This document shows positions 25,599 through 57,985 of a DNA stretch of 64,000 nt, one piece after another. Source of the stretch: Candidatus Saccharimonadota bacterium (GTDB taxonomy: Bacteria; Patescibacteriota; Saccharimonadia; QS-5-54-17); the NCBI GenBank assembly GCA_050486185.1, contig JBJHCT010000001.1, positions 178,866 through 242,865 on the forward strand, written 5' to 3'. Below the pieces are notes generated by a model that was not told the origin of the DNA, searched no databases, and worked only from the letters and a program-made list of their open reading frames with translations. A program made the position numbers and the translations under genes. Each line of letters begins with the position of its first letter. Position 1 is the first letter of the stretch.

Positions 25599-26459
25599 CT
25601 ACGGCTCGATTGGATAGCGGATGTAGGCGACCCCGCGTCCACCGCGACCCGAAAAGGGACCTGTGTTACCAGCCGCACCGCCGCCACCTGCGCCTGTACC
25701 ATGCGTTCCGGCACCGCCTGTGGGAGACGCATCGCTACCTCCTGCGCCGCCGCCGCCAGCACCACCGGCACCGCCAGCATCACGACCGCCCCCGCCGCCG
25801 CCACCGCCGCGAATGACGCTCGACCCGGTGAAGTCGGATGACTCCCCGGCCCCACCGGCACCACCTGTCGTCCACGTCGGGCCGTTCGCCCCCGCCGCCG
25901 AGGTTCCACCGCCACCGCCGCCCGAGTCGTCAGCCGAGCCGTCGCCACCGTCGTTCCCTTGACCTGATGATCCACTGCCCCCGGTTGAACGAGATGCTCC
26001 ACCGCCTCCTGAACCTCCTGAGCCACCAACCTGCTGCCCCGAACCAAAAGTACCCCCACCACCGCCGCCACCAGTTGCAGTCACACCCGCAAACGTCGTG
26101 TTCGAGCCTGCATTACCTCGCCCACCGCCGGTTACACCGGCACCTTCTGCACCGACCACCACGGGGTAGACGGAAGCCGCGACCGGGACACTGCCCGTGC
26201 GCCGACCACCGGCACCGCCACCGCCACCGCCACGGATACCCGAAGATCCGCCACCAGCGCCGCCTCCAGCGACCAGGTAATACTCGACTTCTTCGTCCGT
26301 ACCCGGATCTAGAACCGTAAAGTTGGCTGACCCCGCCGCCGCGAACGTATGAAGCCTATACTGCCGACCGTCGATGGTGATGGTCGACTCGGTGCCGCCA
26401 GTTGCCGAGACAGAAACCCACACATCAGACGCAATGATCCCGCGACGAAGCAGCCGCAT
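25599..26459 (-). CDS. glycine-rich tail-protein-like protein (high GC)
   Basis: FTVLDPGTDEEVEYYLVAGGGAGGGSSG...GGGGGAGG and long G-rich tracts, as in phage minor-tail or glycine-rich-domain proteins. The ATG at 26459 overlaps the P2 stop (TGATG). The ORF track's alternative start is 26492. Confidence 0.65.
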   Translation of the reverse strand: MRLLRRGIIASDVWVSVSATGGTESTITIDGRQYRLHTFAAAGSANFTVLDPGTDEEVEYYLVAGGGAGGGSSGIRGGGGGGAGGRRTGSVPVAASVYPVVVGAEGAGVTGGGRGNAGSNTTFAGVTATGGGGGGGTFGSGQQVGGSGGSGGGGASRSTGGSGSSGQGNDGGDGSADDSGGGGGGTSAAGANGPTWTTGGAGGAGESSDFTGSSVIRGGGGGGGGRDAGGAGGAGGGGAGGSDASPTGGAGTHGTGAGGGGAAGNTGPFSGRGGRGVAYIRYPIEP

Positions 26460-27007
26460 CAGGTGACCGCCTGTGCGCCGGTCATAACCCACTCGTTCGT
26501 AGCGTGCTTCGTGAGCACCGCCGTGCCGTACCGGTCGAGCGTCCCCGCTAGACGAACCGTAACCCCAGAGCCACCCACGACGGTCACGCCACCTGCACCG
26601 GCCGCATAGACCTCGATCACACTGCCCACCACAAACGCGACCGACGAGTTAGGCGGGACAGTGACAGTCACCGCGGCGGTATTGGTGAACCGCTTGACCG
26701 TCCCCGCGTCGGCCAGGGCGAGTGTGTAGGTCGTGCCCGATTCGTCAGAGAGCGCGACAGACGCGACAGAGTCGCCAATCTGTCCATCTACGTAGCCCTT
26801 GTTGGCGATATCAGCATCATCGACAGGATCGGCTACTTGGGCGCGACCCCACTCGTCATAGACTAGGAGCTTATGCCCACCAGCTGTTGTTCCATCATGT
26901 ACTCTAAGAGTCTTATTAGTAGTATCTACTGTAACTTCTCTATTAACGCCAGTAAAAGCATCGTTCTCTGCTTCGGTTCCACCTCTTAGTTGTACTTGGT
27001 CTGGCAT
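26459..27007 (-). CDS. tail-fibre-like protein, Mtd-N-like N-terminal module (low GC) + high-GC C-terminal domain (paralog P2)
   Basis: MPDQVQLRGGTEAENDAFTGVNREVTVDTTNKTLRVHDGTTAGG. Base composition switches inside the ORF near 26860-26890. Confidence 0.8.
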   Translation of the reverse strand: MPDQVQLRGGTEAENDAFTGVNREVTVDTTNKTLRVHDGTTAGGHKLLVYDEWGRAQVADPVDDADIANKGYVDGQIGDSVASVALSDESGTTYTLALADAGTVKRFTNTAAVTVTVPPNSSVAFVVGSVIEVYAAGAGGVTVVGGSGVTVRLAGTLDRYGTAVLTKHATNEWVMTGAQAVT

Positions 27008-46130: not shown

Positions 46131-46520
46131 TTAAAATACCTTACATATCAGCTCACCGCCGATACTTTGTTTTTTAGCTTCTCGGCCGTCCATAATGCCT
46201 TTGGAGGTAGATAGGATGACCACACCCCTACCGCCTAACACCTTAGGTATCTCATCTTTAGATGCATAAACTCGACGGCCTGGCTTAGAGATACGGTGCA
46301 ATTCATTGATCGATTTAGTAGCTGAAGATAGATCTATCTCGATAATCTTGGTAGCTGGAGAGTCTCCAGAAACACTGACATTACCTAAGAATCCCTGCTT
46401 TTTAAGTACTTCTGCTATAGCGTGCTTCATTTTGGAATACGGCACCTCTACTCGGTCTTTGTTGACCGCTAAAGCGTTTCTAATTCTGGTTAACATATCT
46501 GCTATTGTATCCAACGTCAT
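46131..46520 (-). CDS. rpsH: 30S ribosomal protein S8
   Basis: DTIADMLTRIRNA...GGELICKVF. Confidence 0.95.
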   Translation of the reverse strand: MTLDTIADMLTRIRNALAVNKDRVEVPYSKMKHAIAEVLKKQGFLGNVSVSGDSPATKIIEIDLSSATKSINELHRISKPGRRVYASKDEIPKVLGGRGVVILSTSKGIMDGREAKKQSIGGELICKVF

Positions 46521-51197: not shown

Positions 51198-51833
51198 TTA
51201 TTCTCCTAGCCTTTCGCTGATTAGCTTTAGGGCCGGCTTAGTAATAAGTAGATTATCACTGTCGATAACTTGCTTGGTATTTAGGCTACTAGCCAGTACT
51301 ACTTGAACTGATGATATATTGTTAGCCGCACGTTTTAGGTCTTCGCTGACTTCATCAACCACTAATAGAACGTTTCTGTTGAGTTTTAGCTTATCTAGTA
51401 TAATCTTTAAACTTTTAGTCTTGCCGTCTTTGGCTTCAAGAGCCTCGATGATAGCTATATTGCCGCTACTAGCCTTGAGACTTAAAGCTTGTCTTATAGC
51501 TAATCTACCAGCTGTCTTATTCAGCTTTTTACTGTAGTTGCGCTCTTTGAGTGGGCCGAAAGTAATTCCACCACCGCGCCAGATAGGGCTACGGATCGAT
51601 CCAGCTCTAGCTCGACCGGTACCCTTTTGTCTCCATGGCTTTTTACCACCACCGCGGACATTGCTTCTAGTTTTAGTGTGGGCACTAGATTTGCGTCCGT
51701 TGCTCATATGAGTCTCATATGCTTGTTTGAGTAAGTGATGGTTTGCAACGTCTTCGCCAAACACTACCTTTGATAGGGTAGTAGCTTTGGTGGCCTTAGC
51801 CCCAGTCTTGGTGTAAGTTGCTGCAGTCGCCAT
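51198..51833 (-). CDS. rplD: 50S ribosomal protein L4
   Basis: GGGKKPWRQKGTGRARAGSIRSPIWRGGG. Confidence 0.95.
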   Translation of the reverse strand: MATAATYTKTGAKATKATTLSKVVFGEDVANHHLLKQAYETHMSNGRKSSAHTKTRSNVRGGGKKPWRQKGTGRARAGSIRSPIWRGGGITFGPLKERNYSKKLNKTAGRLAIRQALSLKASSGNIAIIEALEAKDGKTKSLKIILDKLKLNRNVLLVVDEVSEDLKRAANNISSVQVVLASSLNTKQVIDSDNLLITKPALKLISERLGE

Positions 51834-52444
51834 TACTCTTTATCCCCTTTAGATTCAATTACCACAATGCCGCCTTTATTACCTGGAACTGCACCGCTAA
51901 TAGCTAGGATGTTATCAGTCGTATCAACAGCCTCGATTTTCAGTCCCTTAGTAGTAACTTTTTCATCACCCATACGACCAGGCATCTTCCTACCCTTATA
52001 GACCTTTTGTGGGTACATAGAACCAATACTTCCAAGTTTGCGTTTGCTTTGAGAACCATGGCTCATAGGGCCTCTACTGAAGTTATGTCGCTTGATAGTG
52101 CCGGCAAAACCTTTACCTTTACTAATACCACTAACTGTAACCTCGTCACCAACTTCAAAGTTAGAGACATCTACTTTGTCGCCAACTTTAGCATCAGAAC
52201 TTAACTTAAACTCACGCAAGTACCGATGGTTAGACTTGCTAGACTTTAAGTGTCCTGCCTGGGGCTTGCTTTGGTGCTTTGCCTCTCCATAACCTAGTTG
52301 CACAGCCTCATAACCATCTTTGTCTGAGTTTTTTAGGGCTGTAATAGTGCACGGGCCAGCCTCTACCAAAGTAACCGCCTTGGCGCTAGAGTCATCTGTA
52401 AAAATTTGTGTCATGCCGAGCTTACGCCCGATGATAGCTTTCAT
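51833..52444 (-). CDS. rplC: 50S ribosomal protein L3
   Basis: MKAIIGRKLGMTQIF...GKGFAGTIKRHNF. Confidence 0.95.
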   Translation of the reverse strand: MKAIIGRKLGMTQIFTDDSSAKAVTLVEAGPCTITALKNSDKDGYEAVQLGYGEAKHQSKPQAGHLKSSKSNHRYLREFKLSSDAKVGDKVDVSNFEVGDEVTVSGISKGKGFAGTIKRHNFSRGPMSHGSQSKRKLGSIGSMYPQKVYKGRKMPGRMGDEKVTTKGLKIEAVDTTDNILAISGAVPGNKGGIVVIESKGDKE

Positions 52445-52559
52445 CTTAGTTATTCCTTATCTAAACATAAAAATACTGCTACGAATTATACCTTTACTTT
52501 CAGGTATCTTCTAGCAGTCTCCGCCTAAAATATAGCGAATCTGTGTTTATATCCTAGGA

Positions 52560-52589
52560 ATTGTAACAGTATATTTCCCCAGGTGTCAA
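52560..52589 (-). promoter_or_regulatory. putative sigma70-type promoter for rplC and the downstream ribosomal operon
   Basis: Minus strand reads TTGACA (52589-52584) - 18 nt - TACAAT (52565-52560). This leaves a 5' UTR of about 115 nt before rplC. Confidence 0.4.
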
Positions 52590-52606
52590 CTGTAGTAGCG
52601 AAAAAT

Positions 52607-53656
52607 CTATTTCCACTTACCTATAGCTGCATAACCTATTATAGTTTCTGTGCCAGAAGCCCTCTGATTGACATCTATACCCCTGATCGAAATGCTAGTG
52701 GTGGATATAGCGCTGACGGTGCCCCATGAAGCACTAGTACCCCACTTAAAGACAGTGGTTAGAGGTGTTGGGGTTTCAGAAAATTGCTGGGGGAAGGTGT
52801 ACGCCCTAACACCTTGGTAGAGACTACCGTAGGCGTTGTCAATGCTTTGATCGGTCACGGTTTCGACCTTGTGAATAATCATAGTTCCATCAGACCATTT
52901 CACCCAATTACCATTACTATCAGAACCGGACTCTACAACGGGAGCACCATTAGATACTAGGCCCCCTGCAACTACAGTACCGCTAAACTCTACTTCGCTA
53001 GTGCTGTGATCAACCGCTATAACATCTTCATCTTTTTGATAGTTCCATAACCTAATATCACTACTGGGCTGATCAAGATACCATAGCCATTTGCTCTCTG
53101 ATGAATCAGCTAGAGCAAAGCCGTGATAACTTGATGATCTGACCCGAATGTGCCCGCCCAAAACATCGAATATAGTGTTGGAGCTATTTGTACCTGGATT
53201 AACATTATTAACCCCTATCCTGCCCCCAGAATCTATATACAATCTGGCTTGAGAGTCTACGCCATCCCATATATATAAATCTCTAGTATTGTTACCGTTG
53301 TAGTCGGTGCCTATATTAAACCGGCCGGCACCTTGTTGTCTGAATTTAATTTCGCTATCCATACGAGTAGCAGAGTCTTTATCTATAGTGATGCCGCCCC
53401 AGTTATCGTTATGACGAACATGCAGCTTTGTTCCCGGAGTATCTGCGCCTATACCTACCCTACCATCTAATCTATAGATATCGTTCCCGCTAACTACCCA
53501 TGAAGACAGAGAAGAAGGCGTTATCCAGGCAGTATCATAATCATTAATAGAATCCTTGGCTAAAACATCACCACTAGCACCGCCAGCCGGAATGCCTTTC
53601 CCACCACCACCTCCTAGCGGCACCAACTCGCCATTTTGTTTTATCCAACGTGTCAT
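52607..53656 (-). CDS. tail-fibre-like protein T3 (gp53-like C-terminal receptor-binding-type domain)
   Basis: GRVGIGADTPGTKLHV fibre motif. C-terminal GSDSNGNWVKWSDGTMIIH...YTFPQQFSETP pattern, as I recall for fibre tip domains. Confidence 0.7.
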   Translation of the reverse strand: MTRWIKQNGELVPLGGGGGKGIPAGGASGDVLAKDSINDYDTAWITPSSLSSWVVSGNDIYRLDGRVGIGADTPGTKLHVRHNDNWGGITIDKDSATRMDSEIKFRQQGAGRFNIGTDYNGNNTRDLYIWDGVDSQARLYIDSGGRIGVNNVNPGTNSSNTIFDVLGGHIRVRSSSYHGFALADSSESKWLWYLDQPSSDIRLWNYQKDEDVIAVDHSTSEVEFSGTVVAGGLVSNGAPVVESGSDSNGNWVKWSDGTMIIHKVETVTDQSIDNAYGSLYQGVRAYTFPQQFSETPTPLTTVFKWGTSASWGTVSAISTTSISIRGIDVNQRASGTETIIGYAAIGKWK

Positions 53657-53746
53657 TTTGTTGATTATTATACTCTCTTAGTAATACCTATAGATTAGCA
53701 CAAGCATATATCAGTCTCAAAAAAACACACAAACATTTAGCTAATG

Positions 53747-54526
53747 CTAAGTAGGCACTGCATCTACTCTATAATAGAGCCCCGTCTTCTCACTGTCACT
53801 ATCATTTAGGGTACCGGCCTGTCCTGTTAAGTTAAAATTAAAACTGTGAGTGCCGGAATTGAGAACTACCATGCCAATCCCAGCGGTTGTGCGCACGTGA
53901 CTATCACCTGTATTAACAGGCATAGCTACTCTTCTTATACTATTTCCATTAACTAGGGCATCGATATAAAACCAGCTAGTGGTTGTAGCACCACTGGGCC
54001 TTGCTGAAACGTTGAAATCCACGCTCAAAACCGCATTAAAGGGTAGCTCTATTTCTATATCTGTACTAAAAAAGTTAGTACCCCTATCCCAAGTACCTTT
54101 TGCAGCCTGGTCTTGAGCTAGAGTTAGAGCAACGTTATTGGCTCTAATCCATCCATCAACATCTAGCCTAACTTGCGGGTTTTCCACTCCTATACCTACT
54201 GAGCCGCCGCCGCTAGGCATAATCTTGATATCTTCACCCGCACCAGAAACAATGTTGTGACCGTTAACGTCTAAGTCACCTCCCAGTTGTGGCGAGTCAT
54301 CCTCCACTAATTTAGATATAGTACTCATACTATTAACTGTCCCTGCAACTTCATCTATTGCAGACTTAACATCTGTAGCGAGTAATCCTGATTCAGTATT
54401 GTCGTATGAAAGACTACTTATATCAATGCTAGCTTCAGATAAATCTATGGTGCCATCTGGATGCAAGACTATATTAGAATCCATAGCATCGGGATGCTGT
54501 ATTTTTGTAGTCTTAACGGTACTCAT
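53747..54526 (-). CDS. tail-fibre-like protein T2
   Basis: DVKSAIDEV, DDSPQLGGDLDVNGHNI and GSVGIGVENPQVRLDVDG motifs, all typical of phage fibre proteins. Confidence 0.7.
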   Translation of the reverse strand: MSTVKTTKIQHPDAMDSNIVLHPDGTIDLSEASIDISSLSYDNTESGLLATDVKSAIDEVAGTVNSMSTISKLVEDDSPQLGGDLDVNGHNIVSGAGEDIKIMPSGGGSVGIGVENPQVRLDVDGWIRANNVALTLAQDQAAKGTWDRGTNFFSTDIEIELPFNAVLSVDFNVSARPSGATTTSWFYIDALVNGNSIRRVAMPVNTGDSHVRTTAGIGMVVLNSGTHSFNFNLTGQAGTLNDSDSEKTGLYYRVDAVPT

Positions 54527-54532
54527 ACTTAA

Positions 54533-55408
54533 TTAACCTTCTAGCCAAAAGCCCCTAGTATAAATATTCTCCACCCAGGGTTGCCAACCACCCGAGTAAG
54601 CCCATATATAGAACCTACCCTCGGAATCCGTCTCTACATCATACTCTATACCCCATCTATCCACACCCACCCCCTGTATAGCAGGGGCATGGGAGGTCCA
54701 AGCATTCCCCGTAGTTGGATCGCCAAATGGTTTAGTCATCCAAAGCATTCCCGAAGCGCCAAGTCTTCTGGTAACTATATATAATTTTACCGCACCTATA
54801 CGACCAATTACTCCCTGTGGCAAGTGCTGACTCATATCTATTAGCTGTGGGCTGGTCGATAGTGGATTTTGTGTAAATATACTACTGGAAGCTAAAGGTG
54901 ATGATTTATCTAATCTATAGTATGCTCCTAGAGCTTTATAGTTAGAGAACTGTTCGTATCTAATGTTGTCGCCAACCCTCACCTCTCCATCAACATGCAG
55001 ACTGGCTTGTGGGTCATCTGTACCTACACCCACCCTGTTATCTGTAGTATTTACGCTAATAGTAGGGGTTTGGCCATCTGAAACCTTGAAAGCTTCAGTG
55101 TTGTTAGTGGCAACATCAACAGGGCCACTAAAGCTAGCCCCATCTAACGGGGCCTTTTTACTATCTAACTCATCGATTGCTTCCTTAACATTGTTTGCAC
55201 TAACAGTAGAGTTGGTATTGTCATAAGTGATACTGCTATTAGTGTCGATATTAACATCAGAGATATTGACCTTGCCGTCTTGATTGAAGGTAATATTGGC
55301 ATCTACAGCTTCAGGGTGTTTAATTGATGTAGTTTTAATTTCCCCAGTTTCTACAGTATTGGTATCCACTACATCACTAATTATTCTATTGGCCTTTATA
55401 TCAGACAA
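54533..55408 (-). CDS. tail-fibre-like protein T1
   Basis: The N-terminal module is paralogous to T2 (TTSIKHPEAVDANITFNQDG...YDNTNS...NVKEAIDEL). NRVGVGTDDPQASLHVDG motif. Confidence 0.7.
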   Translation of the reverse strand: MSDIKANRIISDVVDTNTVETGEIKTTSIKHPEAVDANITFNQDGKVNISDVNIDTNSSITYDNTNSTVSANNVKEAIDELDSKKAPLDGASFSGPVDVATNNTEAFKVSDGQTPTISVNTTDNRVGVGTDDPQASLHVDGEVRVGDNIRYEQFSNYKALGAYYRLDKSSPLASSSIFTQNPLSTSPQLIDMSQHLPQGVIGRIGAVKLYIVTRRLGASGMLWMTKPFGDPTTGNAWTSHAPAIQGVGVDRWGIEYDVETDSEGRFYIWAYSGGWQPWVENIYTRGFWLEG

Positions 55409-55511
55409 AATAACACCTCTTTATACTTAATTTTAATTAGGAGTTAAAACTACTAATACATATATACTACGCAAGCTACAAACAAGGTGTCAAATCAGTC
55501 ACGCTTAGGTA

Positions 55512-57281
55512 TTATCCCACTCTACCTAGTAATATGGCTACTTCGCTATCTACTGGCCACGGATTAAATTTACAACCCTGCAAGTCTATAGACTGTTGCA
55601 ACATCACTGGAGCCGGTGCTCCTGGAGTAGGGCAGTTTAGATGACCAAAGCCAAGTAGGTGACCGGCTTCATGATTGACCACCATATGACGGTAATCTCG
55701 CAAATTCCCACCGGCCTCATTCCAAGAAGGTGTAGCATTTCTCCACCTAACATCATTAATAATGACATCTCTACCGACTCGGCAACTATACTCTGCTGAG
55801 CAGAGAGTAGAGAAACTAGTCAGCTGATCAGCTGCTGCCAGCCAGATAGTGAAATCACTCACACCACTATCTACTCTGCGGAATCCTACGTCACTTCTAG
55901 ACCATCCTCGGCTATCACCTAGAGTTTGGGCAACCAATACTGCAAACTCATTAATATCAGCTACTGTATCCCCTCTAGTAGCGATATTGTAGGTCAATAC
56001 TAAGCTAGGACTTTTAATGCAATACTCTATAGAGCCCTCACCTAGTTCTACCTCGTCTGATTTAGCTGATATAGCTAATATGTAGCATTGATCTTCCAAA
56101 AAACTACCATCTACTACCCCTGATAGATTTACACTTAGTCTATCCTCGCTATTGAGGCTATCTAGTTGATTTGTATCTAAGGACATTCTTTCATCTATAC
56201 TTAGTGGCTGTTGATCACTATCGACAACAAGCTCTAAAGATTTAATAGTTGGCCCGCTTTTATGCAGCATAATATCAATACTTAACTCATCTCCAGATGA
56301 AACCTCTACAGAGCTGGTTGAGATCTCTAAATCTAGAGAAGACTCCTGGGGGTAGGCAAAAACTAACAAAGTTTCTGAGCCGACATATGGAGCATATACA
56401 GAAGCAGCCGAGAGACGTAAATCAAAACTATGACCTCTAATGACGTCTAAGATATTGGTGGTAGCAAAATCACTGTGCCACTCAGTAGAGCAATTTATGC
56501 TTCTTGGACAGTTATCACTAACAAATTGATACCCTGCACCCTTACTGGGTAGACCCTCATCAGTTTGAGTAGTAATATCACCACACTCTAGGTAGTTGAT
56601 ACACCACAGCTGATGAGACTCATCTTCATTGATAATATCTACACTACCTCCATCATCGACCCAAACAGCCGCCTTGTCGGCAAAATCACCATAAACCGGT
56701 GTCTCAAGATCTAAATTAGTATTCGCTATATCGATACTAAAGGGGTTTAATCTACTTAAGAGTGATGGCTTTTTAATAAACTTGGGAGACTTAGAGCTAG
56801 TAATGTCTTGGTTTAGATTTGGTACTCCTAATCTTACGTATTCTGCCCTAGCGCCGCTGTAGCGATATTGATCTGACAGTAAGTCTATAGTTTCATCAAT
56901 ATCACTACTACAAGCATGCTCACCACCGGTAGCTATATAAGTTGGCTCTTCTTCGATAGTCAGAGGCTTGTTAATATCATCTGCTTTGCCGTAAAGACTG
57001 AAGCTTCTAACTTGGTAATGCATTCCCTCTTGATTCCAGATCTCTGAGTCACTCTCATCATTACTACCATCGCTACTTTCTTCACCACCATCCCAGGAAG
57101 CGACTACATCACCATAGGAGACCTGGCACTGAGAATAATTAACATCAGCTATTACTGGATAACTAAACCACCAATAACCCCAAGAGGCTGTAGCTACTGC
57201 CAAGATACTCACAAGAGATATCAGTAGAGTCTTTGGTGAAGTTACTAGTTGCTTCATCCAAGCTCGGATTAATTTCATCAA
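55512..57281 (-). CDS. membrane-anchored metzincin-motif protein (DUF3152-like C-terminal domain)
   Basis: N-terminal TM helix. C-terminal CRVGRDVIINDVRWRN...YRHMVVNHEAGHLLGFGH (HExxHxxGxxH)...APAPVMLQQS, as I recall for actinobacterial DUF3152. Confidence 0.65.
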   Translation of the reverse strand: MMKLIRAWMKQLVTSPKTLLISLVSILAVATASWGYWWFSYPVIADVNYSQCQVSYGDVVASWDGGEESSDGSNDESDSEIWNQEGMHYQVRSFSLYGKADDINKPLTIEEEPTYIATGGEHACSSDIDETIDLLSDQYRYSGARAEYVRLGVPNLNQDITSSKSPKFIKKPSLLSRLNPFSIDIANTNLDLETPVYGDFADKAAVWVDDGGSVDIINEDESHQLWCINYLECGDITTQTDEGLPSKGAGYQFVSDNCPRSINCSTEWHSDFATTNILDVIRGHSFDLRLSAASVYAPYVGSETLLVFAYPQESSLDLEISTSSVEVSSGDELSIDIMLHKSGPTIKSLELVVDSDQQPLSIDERMSLDTNQLDSLNSEDRLSVNLSGVVDGSFLEDQCYILAISAKSDEVELGEGSIEYCIKSPSLVLTYNIATRGDTVADINEFAVLVAQTLGDSRGWSRSDVGFRRVDSGVSDFTIWLAAADQLTSFSTLCSAEYSCRVGRDVIINDVRWRNATPSWNEAGGNLRDYRHMVVNHEAGHLLGFGHLNCPTPGAPAPVMLQQSIDLQGCKFNPWPVDSEVAILLGRVG

Positions 57282-57288
57282 TTAACTC

Positions 57289-57555
57289 CTAAATATTGGT
57301 AGCGTCTAACACTATACCTATTGGTGCTACTAGACTCAAAATAGCAGCTATCAGTAAAATTGCGTACTCTATCTTGCGGTCTATCTGGAAATGATCGTGT
57401 GAGGCGAAAATAAGTCCTAGTATTAGACCTACGGGTACGGGTAGGTTTATAAACCCTACCTTTAGCCAGATAGCTCCCACCAAGAAATACATCAAGATTT
57501 TAAGAAAATACAGACTATCAGGCTCTTGTTTGTTTGTTTGTTTACTCTTAACCAT
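57289..57555 (-). CDS. small membrane protein (3 predicted TM helices)
   Basis: 88-aa hydrophobic ORF ending 7 nt before the metzincin-like gene. Confidence 0.45.
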   Translation of the reverse strand: MVKSKQTNKQEPDSLYFLKILMYFLVGAIWLKVGFINLPVPVGLILGLIFASHDHFQIDRKIEYAILLIAAILSLVAPIGIVLDATNI

Positions 57556-57594
57556 TAGCTATATATTACTGTTAATCTCTGCTACGTGCAAATT

Positions 57595-57629
57595 AAAAAC
57601 CCTTGAGCGAATAACGTCCAAGGGTTTTT
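57595..57629 (-). terminator. rho-independent (bidirectional) terminator directly after rpsJ
   Basis: aaaaacccttg-(13 nt)-caagggttttt. On the minus strand the stem is followed by TTTTT. Confidence 0.65.
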
Positions 57630-57658
57630 ATAAGTAGTTAGGTTAGCTAAATCTACAT

Positions 57659-57985
57659 CTACATCTTGATTTCTGTATCTACACCGCTAGGTAGATTCAG
57701 ATTCATCAAAGAGTCAATCGTCTTATTAGTAGGCTCACTAATATCAATTAATCGCTTATGAACTCGCATCTCAAACTGTTCACGAGAAGATTTGTAGATA
57801 TGTGGACTCTTAACTACTGTGTAACTACTTCTATCGGTCGGTAGTGGAATGGGGCCAGCAACCTTCGCACCAGTTCTAAGAGCTGTTTCGATAATCTGTT
57901 TAGCTGATTGATCTATCAGCTTATGATCATAGGCCTTAAGTCTGATACGAATACGTTGCTTAGTGGGTGCTTCGGAAGTAGCCAT
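57659..57985 (-). CDS. rpsJ: 30S ribosomal protein S10
   Basis: [21 protein letters not shown]...GPIPLPT...HKRLIDI. Confidence 0.95.

Follow-up and report, generated by a model that had tools for sequence, protein, structure and literature searches.

The rpsJ-rplC interval of a Candidatus Saccharimonadota genome: a probably inherited boundary between two transcription units, with lineage-specific fiber-like genes

In this work, we analyze the interval between rpsJ and rplC, the genes of ribosomal proteins S10 and L3, in a stretch of 64,000 nucleotides (nt) from a Candidatus Saccharimonadota genome (assembly GCA_050486185.1, contig JBJHCT010000001.1), called here the window, whose numbering is used throughout. 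A first-pass annotation had seen in this interval one 5.2-kb cassette inserted in a junction that is intact in essentially all bacterial S10 operons, with the ribosomal operon apparently re-wired around the insert. Our comparative data suggest another history, in which two transcription units meet at an inherited boundary, with a slot for other genes between them, and in which only three phage-fiber-like genes, T1, T2 and T3, were added later in this lineage. They also point to a clade-wide rplC leader that reproduces the S8-binding core of helix 21 of the 16S ribosomal RNA (rRNA).

Gene content of the interval

The open reading frame (ORF) list gives, on the minus strand, the order fusA, tuf, rpsJ, a gene for a membrane protein of 88 amino acids (aa), a gene for a DUF3152 protein, T1, T2, T3, rplC and rplD. 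The list and the Pfam assignments agree with the first-pass annotation on the position of rpsJ, of rplC and of the five same-strand ORFs between them (Table 1). rpsJ is the final gene of an rpsL-rpsG-fusA-tuf-rpsJ unit, its start codon overlapping the tuf stop codon by 1 nt, and a gap of 5,214 bp separates it from rplC; the window does not have the arrangement of the canonical S10 operon, with rpsJ directly 5' of rplC. Downstream of rplC, the translations resemble by inspection L4, L23, L2, S19, L22 and S3 (in the window Pfam was run for L3 and S10 only), and the L4-to-S3 order is Pfam-labeled in relatives; in this part the window agrees with the canonical S10 operon.

The GC content, the GC content at third codon positions (GC3) and the codon usage of all five gap genes are within the range of 16 other window genes, in agreement with the host-like composition noted earlier. 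No flanking direct repeats were found around T1-T3, the sole repeat family being the fiber motif inside the three genes. The ORF list has no recombinase inside the interval, and neither integrase nor mobility genes were found. When the five interval proteins were scanned with PHROGs and Pfam, the phage matches were of fiber type only, with no other virion genes, and the flanking genes are ribosomal.

Table 1. Position and supporting evidence of the features at the rpsJ-rplC interval of the window.
Feature	Position	Strand	Evidence and remarks
rpsJ (S10)	57659-57985	minus	Pfam Ribosomal_S10, E 1e-37
Terminator-like hairpin and U-tract	~57589-57630	minus	Fold energy, z-score; analogs in relatives
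Possible promoter of 88-aa gene, TTGCAC-N17-TAATAT	57556-57591	minus	Read from the sequence; tentative
88-aa membrane protein ORF	57289-57555	minus	Three hydrophobic segments
DUF3152 ORF (589 aa)	55512-57281	minus	Pfam DUF3152, E 4e-23; likely true start ATG 57278
Promoter-like site 5' of T1, TTGACA-N18-TAGTAT	55464-55493	minus	Consensus scan, 10/12 positions; no comparative support
T1, fiber-like	54533-55408	minus	N-terminal module common to T2, and shaft repeat
T2, fiber-like	53747-54526	minus	N-terminal paralog of T1; PHROG matches
T3, fiber-like	52607-53656	minus	phrog_2712 match; receptor-binding tip at residues ~216-349
rplC promoter, TTGACA-N18-TACAAT with TG extension	52560-52589	minus	Consensus scan, 11/12 positions, and conservation
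rplC 5' leader	52445-52559	minus	Hairpin 1 52520-52539; hairpin 2 52475-52518; U-run 52462-52474; Shine-Dalgarno ~52454-52459
rplC (L3)	51833-52444	minus	Pfam Ribosomal_L3; first gene of rplC...rpsH...secY cluster
rpsH (S8)	46134-46514	as rplC	Found by tblastn

The junction in related genomes and its resident genes

The synteny sample consisted of the 80 genome loci closest by L3, in each of which EF-Tu, S10, L3 and L4 were located; the highest L3 identity to the window among them was 62%. The rpsJ-rplC spacing was 560-5,500 bp in all of the 39 loci of Saccharibacteria and other Candidate Phyla Radiation (CPR) bacteria that have rpsJ upstream on the same strand, against 3-85 bp in 24 Actinomycetota-type loci, so the junction that the first-pass annotation took to be intact in related genomes is already split there. 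The gap of locus L046 measures just 186 bp and is occupied by the leader. rpsJ is inverted in six loci, and several others have no rpsJ within 10 kb. Clustering of the gap ORFs gave the 88-aa family as sole recurrent gene (26 of 38 clustered split loci), the remainder being heterogeneous, with larger cargo such as a beta-propeller protein, ABC-F, CTP synthase, MprF-like, PGA_cap, MacB/FtsX and TsaD. Unrelated housekeeping genes at this place in relatives were what the first-pass annotation itself had named as speaking against an insertion, and the CTP synthase, TsaD, ABC-F, MacB/FtsX and MprF-like genes, some of them housekeeping, largely answer to this description. Literature searches for a split of rpsJ and rplC, for the S10 operon or for ribosomal leaders in Saccharibacteria or other CPR bacteria returned nothing relevant.

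The loci with rpsJ on the strand opposite to rplC are L047, L055, L062, L068, L074 and L076, and the tuf-rpsJ junction is also broken, by 0.6-2 kb, in L008, L013, L017, L020, L024, L026, L031 and L042. In Saccharibacteria loci with a broken tuf-rpsJ junction or an inverted rpsJ, rpsJ acts as a free-standing gene; in agreement with this, a separate 'rpsJ promoter' taken from TM7x has been employed (PMC10633639). An unannotated ORF of 98-116 aa lies between rpsG and fusA in two genomes (L083:5483-5779 and L085:5595-5945), as a small insertion in the str operon.

The subclade of the window is the most informative for the history of the five genes. In all seven relatives (L082, L083, L085, L087, L088, L090 and L091) the DUF3152 gene lies directly 5' of rplC and T1-T3 are absent. 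The order rpsJ, 88-aa gene, DUF3152 gene and rplC is complete in the four relatives with junction-spanning contigs (L082, L083, L085 and L088), and L082, L083 and L085 have in full the order EF-Tu, S10, 88-aa protein, DUF3152, L3 and L4. Only a fragment lies upstream of S10 in L088, L087 has the same order with rplC cut by the contig end, and the contigs of L090 and L091 begin inside or after the 88-aa gene, which is consistent with a fixed order. The 88-aa and DUF3152 genes are thus resident in relatives and the supposed single cassette is reduced to T1-T3 (52607-55408), that is ~2.8 kb of coding sequence, or ~3.0 kb with the flanking intergenic DNA, between the DUF3152 stop codon and the rplC promoter.

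The terminator reported directly after rpsJ is present as a predicted hairpin, AAAAACCCUUGG...CUCAAGGGUUUUU, at ~57594-57630, with a U-run after it (-20.5 kcal/mol, z = -3.7 relative to shuffles). It has the two elements of an intrinsic terminator, a GC-containing hairpin and a U-tract directly after, and was passed over by the consensus terminator scanner, its loop being longer than 8 nt. A terminator-like hairpin occurs within 130 nt after rpsJ in 30 of the 39 split loci, and an analogous one in the subclade relatives L083 and L085. Termination after rpsJ, as predicted from these hairpins, is a habit of the clade and not specific to the window.

At the other end of the gap, the promoter 5' of rplC and the structured leader of ~115 nt that follows it were also found as first described. 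Consensus promoter matches are not enriched in the region (30 found, 31.7 expected in shuffles), and the support for the rplC promoter comes from its conservation at the same place in relatives, not from the frequency of the consensus. The -10 element (CTGnTACAAT) is at the same position in all seven aligned relatives, which all lack T1-T3, and the -35 element TTGACACC is kept in all five whose aligned stretch extends that far. The intergenic DNA between the DUF3152 gene and rplC in relatives aligns with the region between T3 and rplC in the window, promoter and leader base for base, and homology to L082 picks up again at the T3 stop codon. Since promoter and leader align with relatives without T1-T3, both predate T1-T3, and together with the terminator of the 30 split loci this leaves no place for an operon re-wired around an insert.

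The leader of the window is predicted to form two hairpins (-26.9 kcal/mol, z = -4.2), of which hairpin 2, GCUAGAAGAUACC...GGUAUAAUUCGUAGC, is followed by the U-tract UAUUUUUAUG. Both hairpins are common to the window and its relatives, with GCUAGAAGAUAyC...GrUAUAAUUCGUAGC as consensus of hairpin 2, and the consensus leader structure shows a few compensatory changes across seven subclade genomes. The hairpin is near-invariant in L082, L083, L085, L087, L090 and L091 although their L3 is only 56-79% identical, and a U-tract follows it in five of eight sequences. An E-value scan of the window leader against Rfam gave nothing credible, and the gathering-threshold scan of the whole window returned tRNAs only. 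A search of E. coli rRNA for the subclade hairpin motif gave one exact 9-mer, GAAGAUACC, at ~23S nt 1753-1761; no partner strand was found and the match was taken as chance. Two DNA-pattern scans of metagenomes for the subclade leader gave 0 and 9 matches respectively, the latter being attributed to chance, with no ribosomal genes near.

Taken together, these data place rpsJ and rplC very probably in different transcription units, and gene order and alignment present the gap as an inherited boundary between the two units and not as a new split. The first-pass annotation was accurate in what it observed and mostly wrong in its interpretation.

The 88-aa protein belongs to a family of 83-135 aa with three hydrophobic segments and the invariant cytoplasmic-loop motif H(D/E)HFxIDRKIEYA. 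Homologs are found between rpsJ and rplC in the majority of Saccharimonadia loci and in every relative of the subclade. The family has no credible match in Pfam or NCBIfam; a holin assignment was rejected, the NCBIfam match scoring 16.5 bits for a cut-off of 39.7. The sequence TTGCAC-N17-TAATAT, absent from the consensus-scan listing, ends 7 nt 5' of the ATG of the gene. The stretch CAGTAATATATAGCTAATG is identical in L082, where TTGCRC-N17-TAATAT is conserved (L082:3515-3547). From this putative promoter the resident gap genes may be transcribed with almost no leader, which is a tentative reading.

The 589-aa protein, described at first as transmembrane-anchored with an HExxHxxGxxH motif, is a DUF3152 protein (PF11350, 82.6 bits for a gathering cut-off of 25.1). 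The motif reads HEAGHLLGFGH at residues 537-547, H537, E538, H541, G544 and H547 being invariant in 12 sequences, and the alignment has an N-terminal transmembrane helix, some ten cysteines that are conserved, and NHExGHxxGxGH without variation. The AlphaFold model, with a predicted local distance difference test score (pLDDT) of 80.5, has the transmembrane helix, beta-sandwich domains and a C-terminal alpha/beta domain. The mechanical ORF starts at TTG 57281; the ATG one codon downstream (57278) is preceded by AGGAG and is the more likely start because it matches the N-termini of homologs and the 588-aa database entry P0068. A search of the DUF3152 profile against PDB sequences gave zero matches, and whole-chain Foldseek was dominated by generic beta-sandwich matches. 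The one paper found to mention DUF3152 lists it in a computational adhesin screen (PMC3726780). The best reading of the motif and the model is a membrane-anchored extracellular metzincin-like protease. Full-length homologs (39-60% identity) were found in Saccharimonadales assemblies only, and we take the organism of the window for a divergent member of Candidatus Saccharimonadales. As the closest relatives, L082 and L087, share with the window 96% identity in EF-Tu, 95% in S10 and 79% in L3 against 60% in DUF3152, the latter is a fast-evolving resident gene.

The clade-wide rplC leader

In nearly all loci of Saccharibacteria and other CPR bacteria, rplC is preceded by a predicted promoter and then by a conserved hairpin with a U-tract. 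The leader, which we call R1, is ~65 nt long and consists of an outer stem around A-N-GUC-[hairpin]-GA(A/U)AC-N with the U-tract next to it; it occurs in Saccharibacteria, in CPR2 and in further Patescibacteria. From 23 sequences we built a covariance model, which gave 46 matches in 1.2 Mb, all of them 10-280 nt 5' of rplC on the same strand and none in Actinomycetota-type loci. The R1 loci lie within L002-L078 (e.g., L058:1147-1204 and L054:9917-9979). In the alignment 86.7% of the cells are paired against ~40% when the partner columns are slid, a figure somewhat inflated by the fitting of the alignment to the model, and a compensatory change is seen in 15 of 16 pairs. R1 is not in Rfam 15, where an E-value scan of a relative's leader gave nothing credible, and the ribosomal-leader survey and the literature searched contained nothing comparable.

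The S8 recognition core comprises A595, the 596:644 pair (A596:U644), G597-C643, U598-A640, C599-G639 and A642 (PMC4176348). Forty of the 42 distinct R1 leaders keep GUC...GA(N)AC, with A at position 595 in 37 and A or U at 641, and covariation is seen at 596:644, which is either A:U or G:C. Scanned with the core pattern, the E. coli rrnH operon has two matches, of which only the one at 16S nt 593-647, in helix 21, forms a stable helix. The whole R1 model has no match in the E. coli rRNA operon, and the mimicry is limited to the internal-loop core. In 2.45 Mb, 27 occurrences of the strict motif with both flanking helices lie 5' of rplC and 5 lie in other places. Furthermore, rpsH lies ~6.2 kb downstream, on the strand of rplC, in all 34 R1 loci with enough DNA. 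According to these sequence comparisons, the S8-binding core of helix 21 is present in the rplC leader across the clade, which makes R1 a candidate for S8-dependent attenuation of a fused S10-spc operon.

The leader of the window has another structure. The R1 covariance model did not match 52445-52559, even with filters off, nor did it match the subclade loci, and membership of the window leader in the R1 family was rejected on this ground. The S8-core motif with flanking helices was found nowhere in the window, and hairpin 2 has a regular helix at the position of the core. The comparison suggests that the subclade of the window has swapped the S8-type leader for a different conserved hairpin.

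Fiber-like genes, rival explanations and comparison with known systems

T1-T3 are intact ORFs of 259-349 aa, T1 having a clear ribosome-binding site. The first-pass description of three tail-fiber-like proteins holds solidly for T3, as judged from its sequence and predicted fold, and for T1 and T2 at the level of motifs and repeats only. T1 and T2 are 34% identical over 151 aa, corresponding to their first ~150 residues, and differ in their C-terminal domains; the common region has the motif YDNTxS...VKxAIDE, known from phage structural proteins. The shaft repeat VGxGTxxPxxxLHVxG, central in T1 and likewise part of the region common to T1 and T2, gave T1 743 matches in an exhaustive HMMER search and reaches 44 copies in giant proteins, some with Peptidase_S74 or T7 tail-fiber domains. 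T1 residues 155-290 match stand-alone proteins of ~175 aa. T1 had no match in annotated phages, nor T1 or T3 in viral contigs. T2 matches phrog_31104 (E 3e-6), the tail-fiber connector phrog_677 (E 2e-3, a weak motif match) and a Pelagibacter phage structural protein (E 5e-5); its residues 25-87 match eight viral contigs through a motif of only ~40 residues. Among 5.8 billion proteins T2 found only itself, its C-terminal domain being an orphan, and no characterized homolog was found for the tips of T1 and T2.

The C-terminal part of T3 matches the tail-fiber family phrog_2712 (E 3e-20) and shares 42-47% identity with the C-terminal ends of tail fibers from Pseudomonas phages (tblastn E down to 6e-23). 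Its identity reaches 50-56% with the tips of certain 571-aa proteins from phage tail modules; one of these proteins adjoins a Prophage_tail gene on a 36-kb phage-like contig, and another homolog lies in a 61-kb phage contig. In the model, residues 240-349 have pLDDT >90 and their best Foldseek matches are the foot of the R1 pyocin fiber (6cl5 and 6cxb, probability 1.00) and H-type lectins. Only T3, among the three, has a C-terminal receptor-binding domain homologous to characterized fibers. Full-length homologs of T1-T3 were absent among the 5.8 billion proteins, tblastn with T1-T3 across the 64-kb window revealed no further fiber genes, and no sheath, tube, baseplate or tape-measure gene adjoins T1-T3. 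Neither an integrase with attachment (att) repeats nor adjacent virion genes, as expected of a prophage or mobile element, were found. By their sequences, T1-T3 appear as orphan mosaics of phage fiber modules without virion context.

A second phage-fiber-like pair lies elsewhere in the window (25599-27007, minus strand), 5' of a 62-aa ORF, nusG, more ORFs and rplA. One gene encodes 182 aa, with the domain Mtd_N (PF18454, E 2e-11) and a C-terminus resembling minor tail proteins, and the other a Gly_rich_2 protein of 297 aa (PF21722, E 4e-17; phrog_2295, E 2e-39). Their GC of 52-61% for a background of ~42%, with a GC3 of 0.57-0.58, indicates a recent transfer from a high-GC donor.

We consider the best explanation, with a probability of about 0.8, to be an inherited two-unit boundary with a slot, to which T1-T3 were added later in this lineage. 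In the window, rpsJ closes the rpsL-rpsG-fusA-tuf-rpsJ unit with a predicted intrinsic terminator, and in Saccharimonadia and neighboring CPR bacteria it is not the gene that heads the S10 operon. The long rplC...rpsH...secY unit is headed by rplC, with its own putative sigma-70-type promoter and structured leader. The slot between them houses the 88-aa protein in most Saccharibacteria, other cargo by lineage, and DUF3152 in the subclade of the window. Parsimony would place the insertion of T1-T3 after the DUF3152 stop codon and before an rplC promoter that was already there. Their transcription may start at the promoter-like site at 55464-55493, result from read-through from the 88-aa and DUF3152 genes, or both. 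As no terminator was found after T3, transcripts would run into the rplC leader, where hairpin 2 and the U-run would stop or attenuate them.

Several points weigh against this explanation. The terminator, the promoters and the attenuation step are deduced from sequence and conservation, and no terminator is detectable after rpsJ in 9 of the 39 split loci, L082 and L087, the nearest relatives, being among these. The gain of T1-T3 is deduced from seven relatives, and repeated loss is formally possible. T1-T3 are unique to this genome; by inspection they have neither signal peptide nor transmembrane segment; T1 and T2 are fiber-like only through short motifs and repeats; and the N-terminal two-thirds of the T3 model, computed as a monomer, are unreliable (pLDDT <50).

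The first-pass model, one mobile cassette of 5.2 kb in an otherwise universal junction, where a terminator and a promoter that evolved afterwards or came with the insert re-wired the operon, is very improbable. It accounts for five contiguous and co-oriented genes lying between a terminator and a promoter, and for the adjacency of rpsJ and rplC in the 24 Actinomycetota-type loci, but it is refuted by synteny, all Saccharibacteria and other CPR loci examined being already split and the 88-aa gene, the DUF3152 gene, the promoter and the leader all being present in relatives without T1-T3; flanking repeats, integrase and mobility genes were not found either. An assembly chimera that mis-joined T1-T3 into the ribosomal cluster can be given hardly any credit: T1-T3 are known only from this source, which is a metagenome assembly, but NCBI and Logan each have T2, T3 and the DUF3152 protein in exactly this form, on a contig of 264,553 bp, the composition and codon usage match the host, and the boundaries fall in intergenic DNA, with the homology to L082 resuming at the T3 stop codon.

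The role of T1-T3 is a separate question. They may be what is left of a degraded prophage or of a transfer by phage, inert and without function in a permissive slot; their modules are of phage origin, they are unique to the genome and lack export signals, and the second fiber-like pair of the window, foreign in composition, is a case of such DNA entering this genome. Against this stand the three intact ORFs, the ribosome-binding site and promoter-like site of T1, a codon usage fully ameliorated to the host and the lack of other phage genes or pseudogene fragments adjoining them. CPR genomes are small and usually shed useless DNA fast, which also counts against a remnant. We regard this explanation as unlikely, without being negligible. 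It is considerably less probable that T1-T3 are exchangeable fibers of a tailocin, a phage-like particle or a contractile injection system encoded elsewhere. The best structural match of the T3 tip is indeed an R-type pyocin fiber, and a common N-terminal module with differing tips is typical of particles with switchable specificity, but no structural particle genes adjoin T1-T3, and tblastn with T1-T3 revealed no additional fiber genes in the 64-kb window. More speculatively, T1-T3 could have been kept as receptor-binding fibers for glycans on the host bacterium of the epibiont, beside the surface protease, a role that we hold to be possible and rather doubtful.

These results can be joined in one tentative scheme, to which we would give somewhat less than even odds. 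The gap would be owed to a regulatory boundary of a kind so far undescribed. Across Saccharimonadia and other Patescibacteria, an S8-mimicking attenuator of ~65 nt would head the fused S10-spc operon, and excess S8, not L4 as in E. coli, would terminate transcription of ~20 ribosomal genes. With rpsJ displaced to the tuf unit, the unregulated slot left between terminator and attenuator would serve as a landing pad for a conserved small membrane protein and lineage-specific surface genes, here a metzincin-like protease and phage-derived fibers that may act in host recognition; the subclade of the window would have exchanged the S8 mimic for another operator, equally conserved.

The cassette alone would be a modest finding, a strain-specific phage-derived fiber trio in a permissive slot, and the locus gains in value through the re-partition of the operon across the lineage and through the candidate attenuator of S8 type. 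Saccharibacteria and related CPR bacteria have re-partitioned the most conserved gene cluster of bacteria, which bears on synteny-based annotation and binning checks, as well as on which promoters and neutral sites are selected for the new genetic systems of these bacteria. R1, if true, would be a new ribosomal-protein autoregulatory RNA and the first proposed for CPR bacteria within the literature searched. An uncharacterized small membrane protein family is in addition tied to the rpsJ-rplC locus, and if the fibers and the surface protease are adhesion factors, they would be candidate host-range determinants of an epibiont.

Several known systems can be compared with this locus. The T3 tip resembles in sequence and fold the fibers of phages and R-type pyocins (P. 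aeruginosa R1; Pseudomonas phage KPP25/phi2-type), and T1 and T2 carry the shaft-repeat and N-terminal motifs of phage structural proteins; unlike these fibers, T1-T3 are short and lie inside a CPR ribosomal super-cluster, without virion or tailocin context. The DUF3152 protein shares with those of Actinomycetota and Saccharibacteria a C-terminal domain above the Pfam threshold and an invariant HExxHxxGxxH, whereas the subfamily of the window is distinguished by its long Cys-rich beta-sandwich ectodomain and its fixed rpsJ-rplC position.

The E. coli systems use two regulators, S8 as repressor of the spc operon at rplE and L4 for attenuation in the S10 leader (PMC3616713). The S8 operator, at the beginning of rplE, is an mRNA mimic of helix 21, and the response to L4 combines attenuation of transcription with control of translation. 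Like this S10 leader, the CPR leader is a structured element before a long ribosomal-protein operon, with a hairpin and U-tract and a putative operon-encoded regulator. It differs by preceding rplC, rpsJ being outside the operon at the end of the tuf unit, by having no sequence or Rfam likeness to any known leader and by carrying, clade-wide, an S8-type core instead of an L4-type element. With the spc operator R1 shares the helix-21 core, including the N641 position, two flanking covarying helices and the presence of rpsH in the cluster; the subclade of the window differs from both in its leader without S8 core. Unlike the operator at rplE, R1 lies ~6 kb 5' of rpsH, at the head of the S10-spc cluster, and its core is inside a terminator-like hairpin, suggesting attenuation rather than translational repression. 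By analogy with the two E. coli systems, the CPR leader looks like a hybrid, an S8 operator within an attenuator that heads a fused S10-spc operon.

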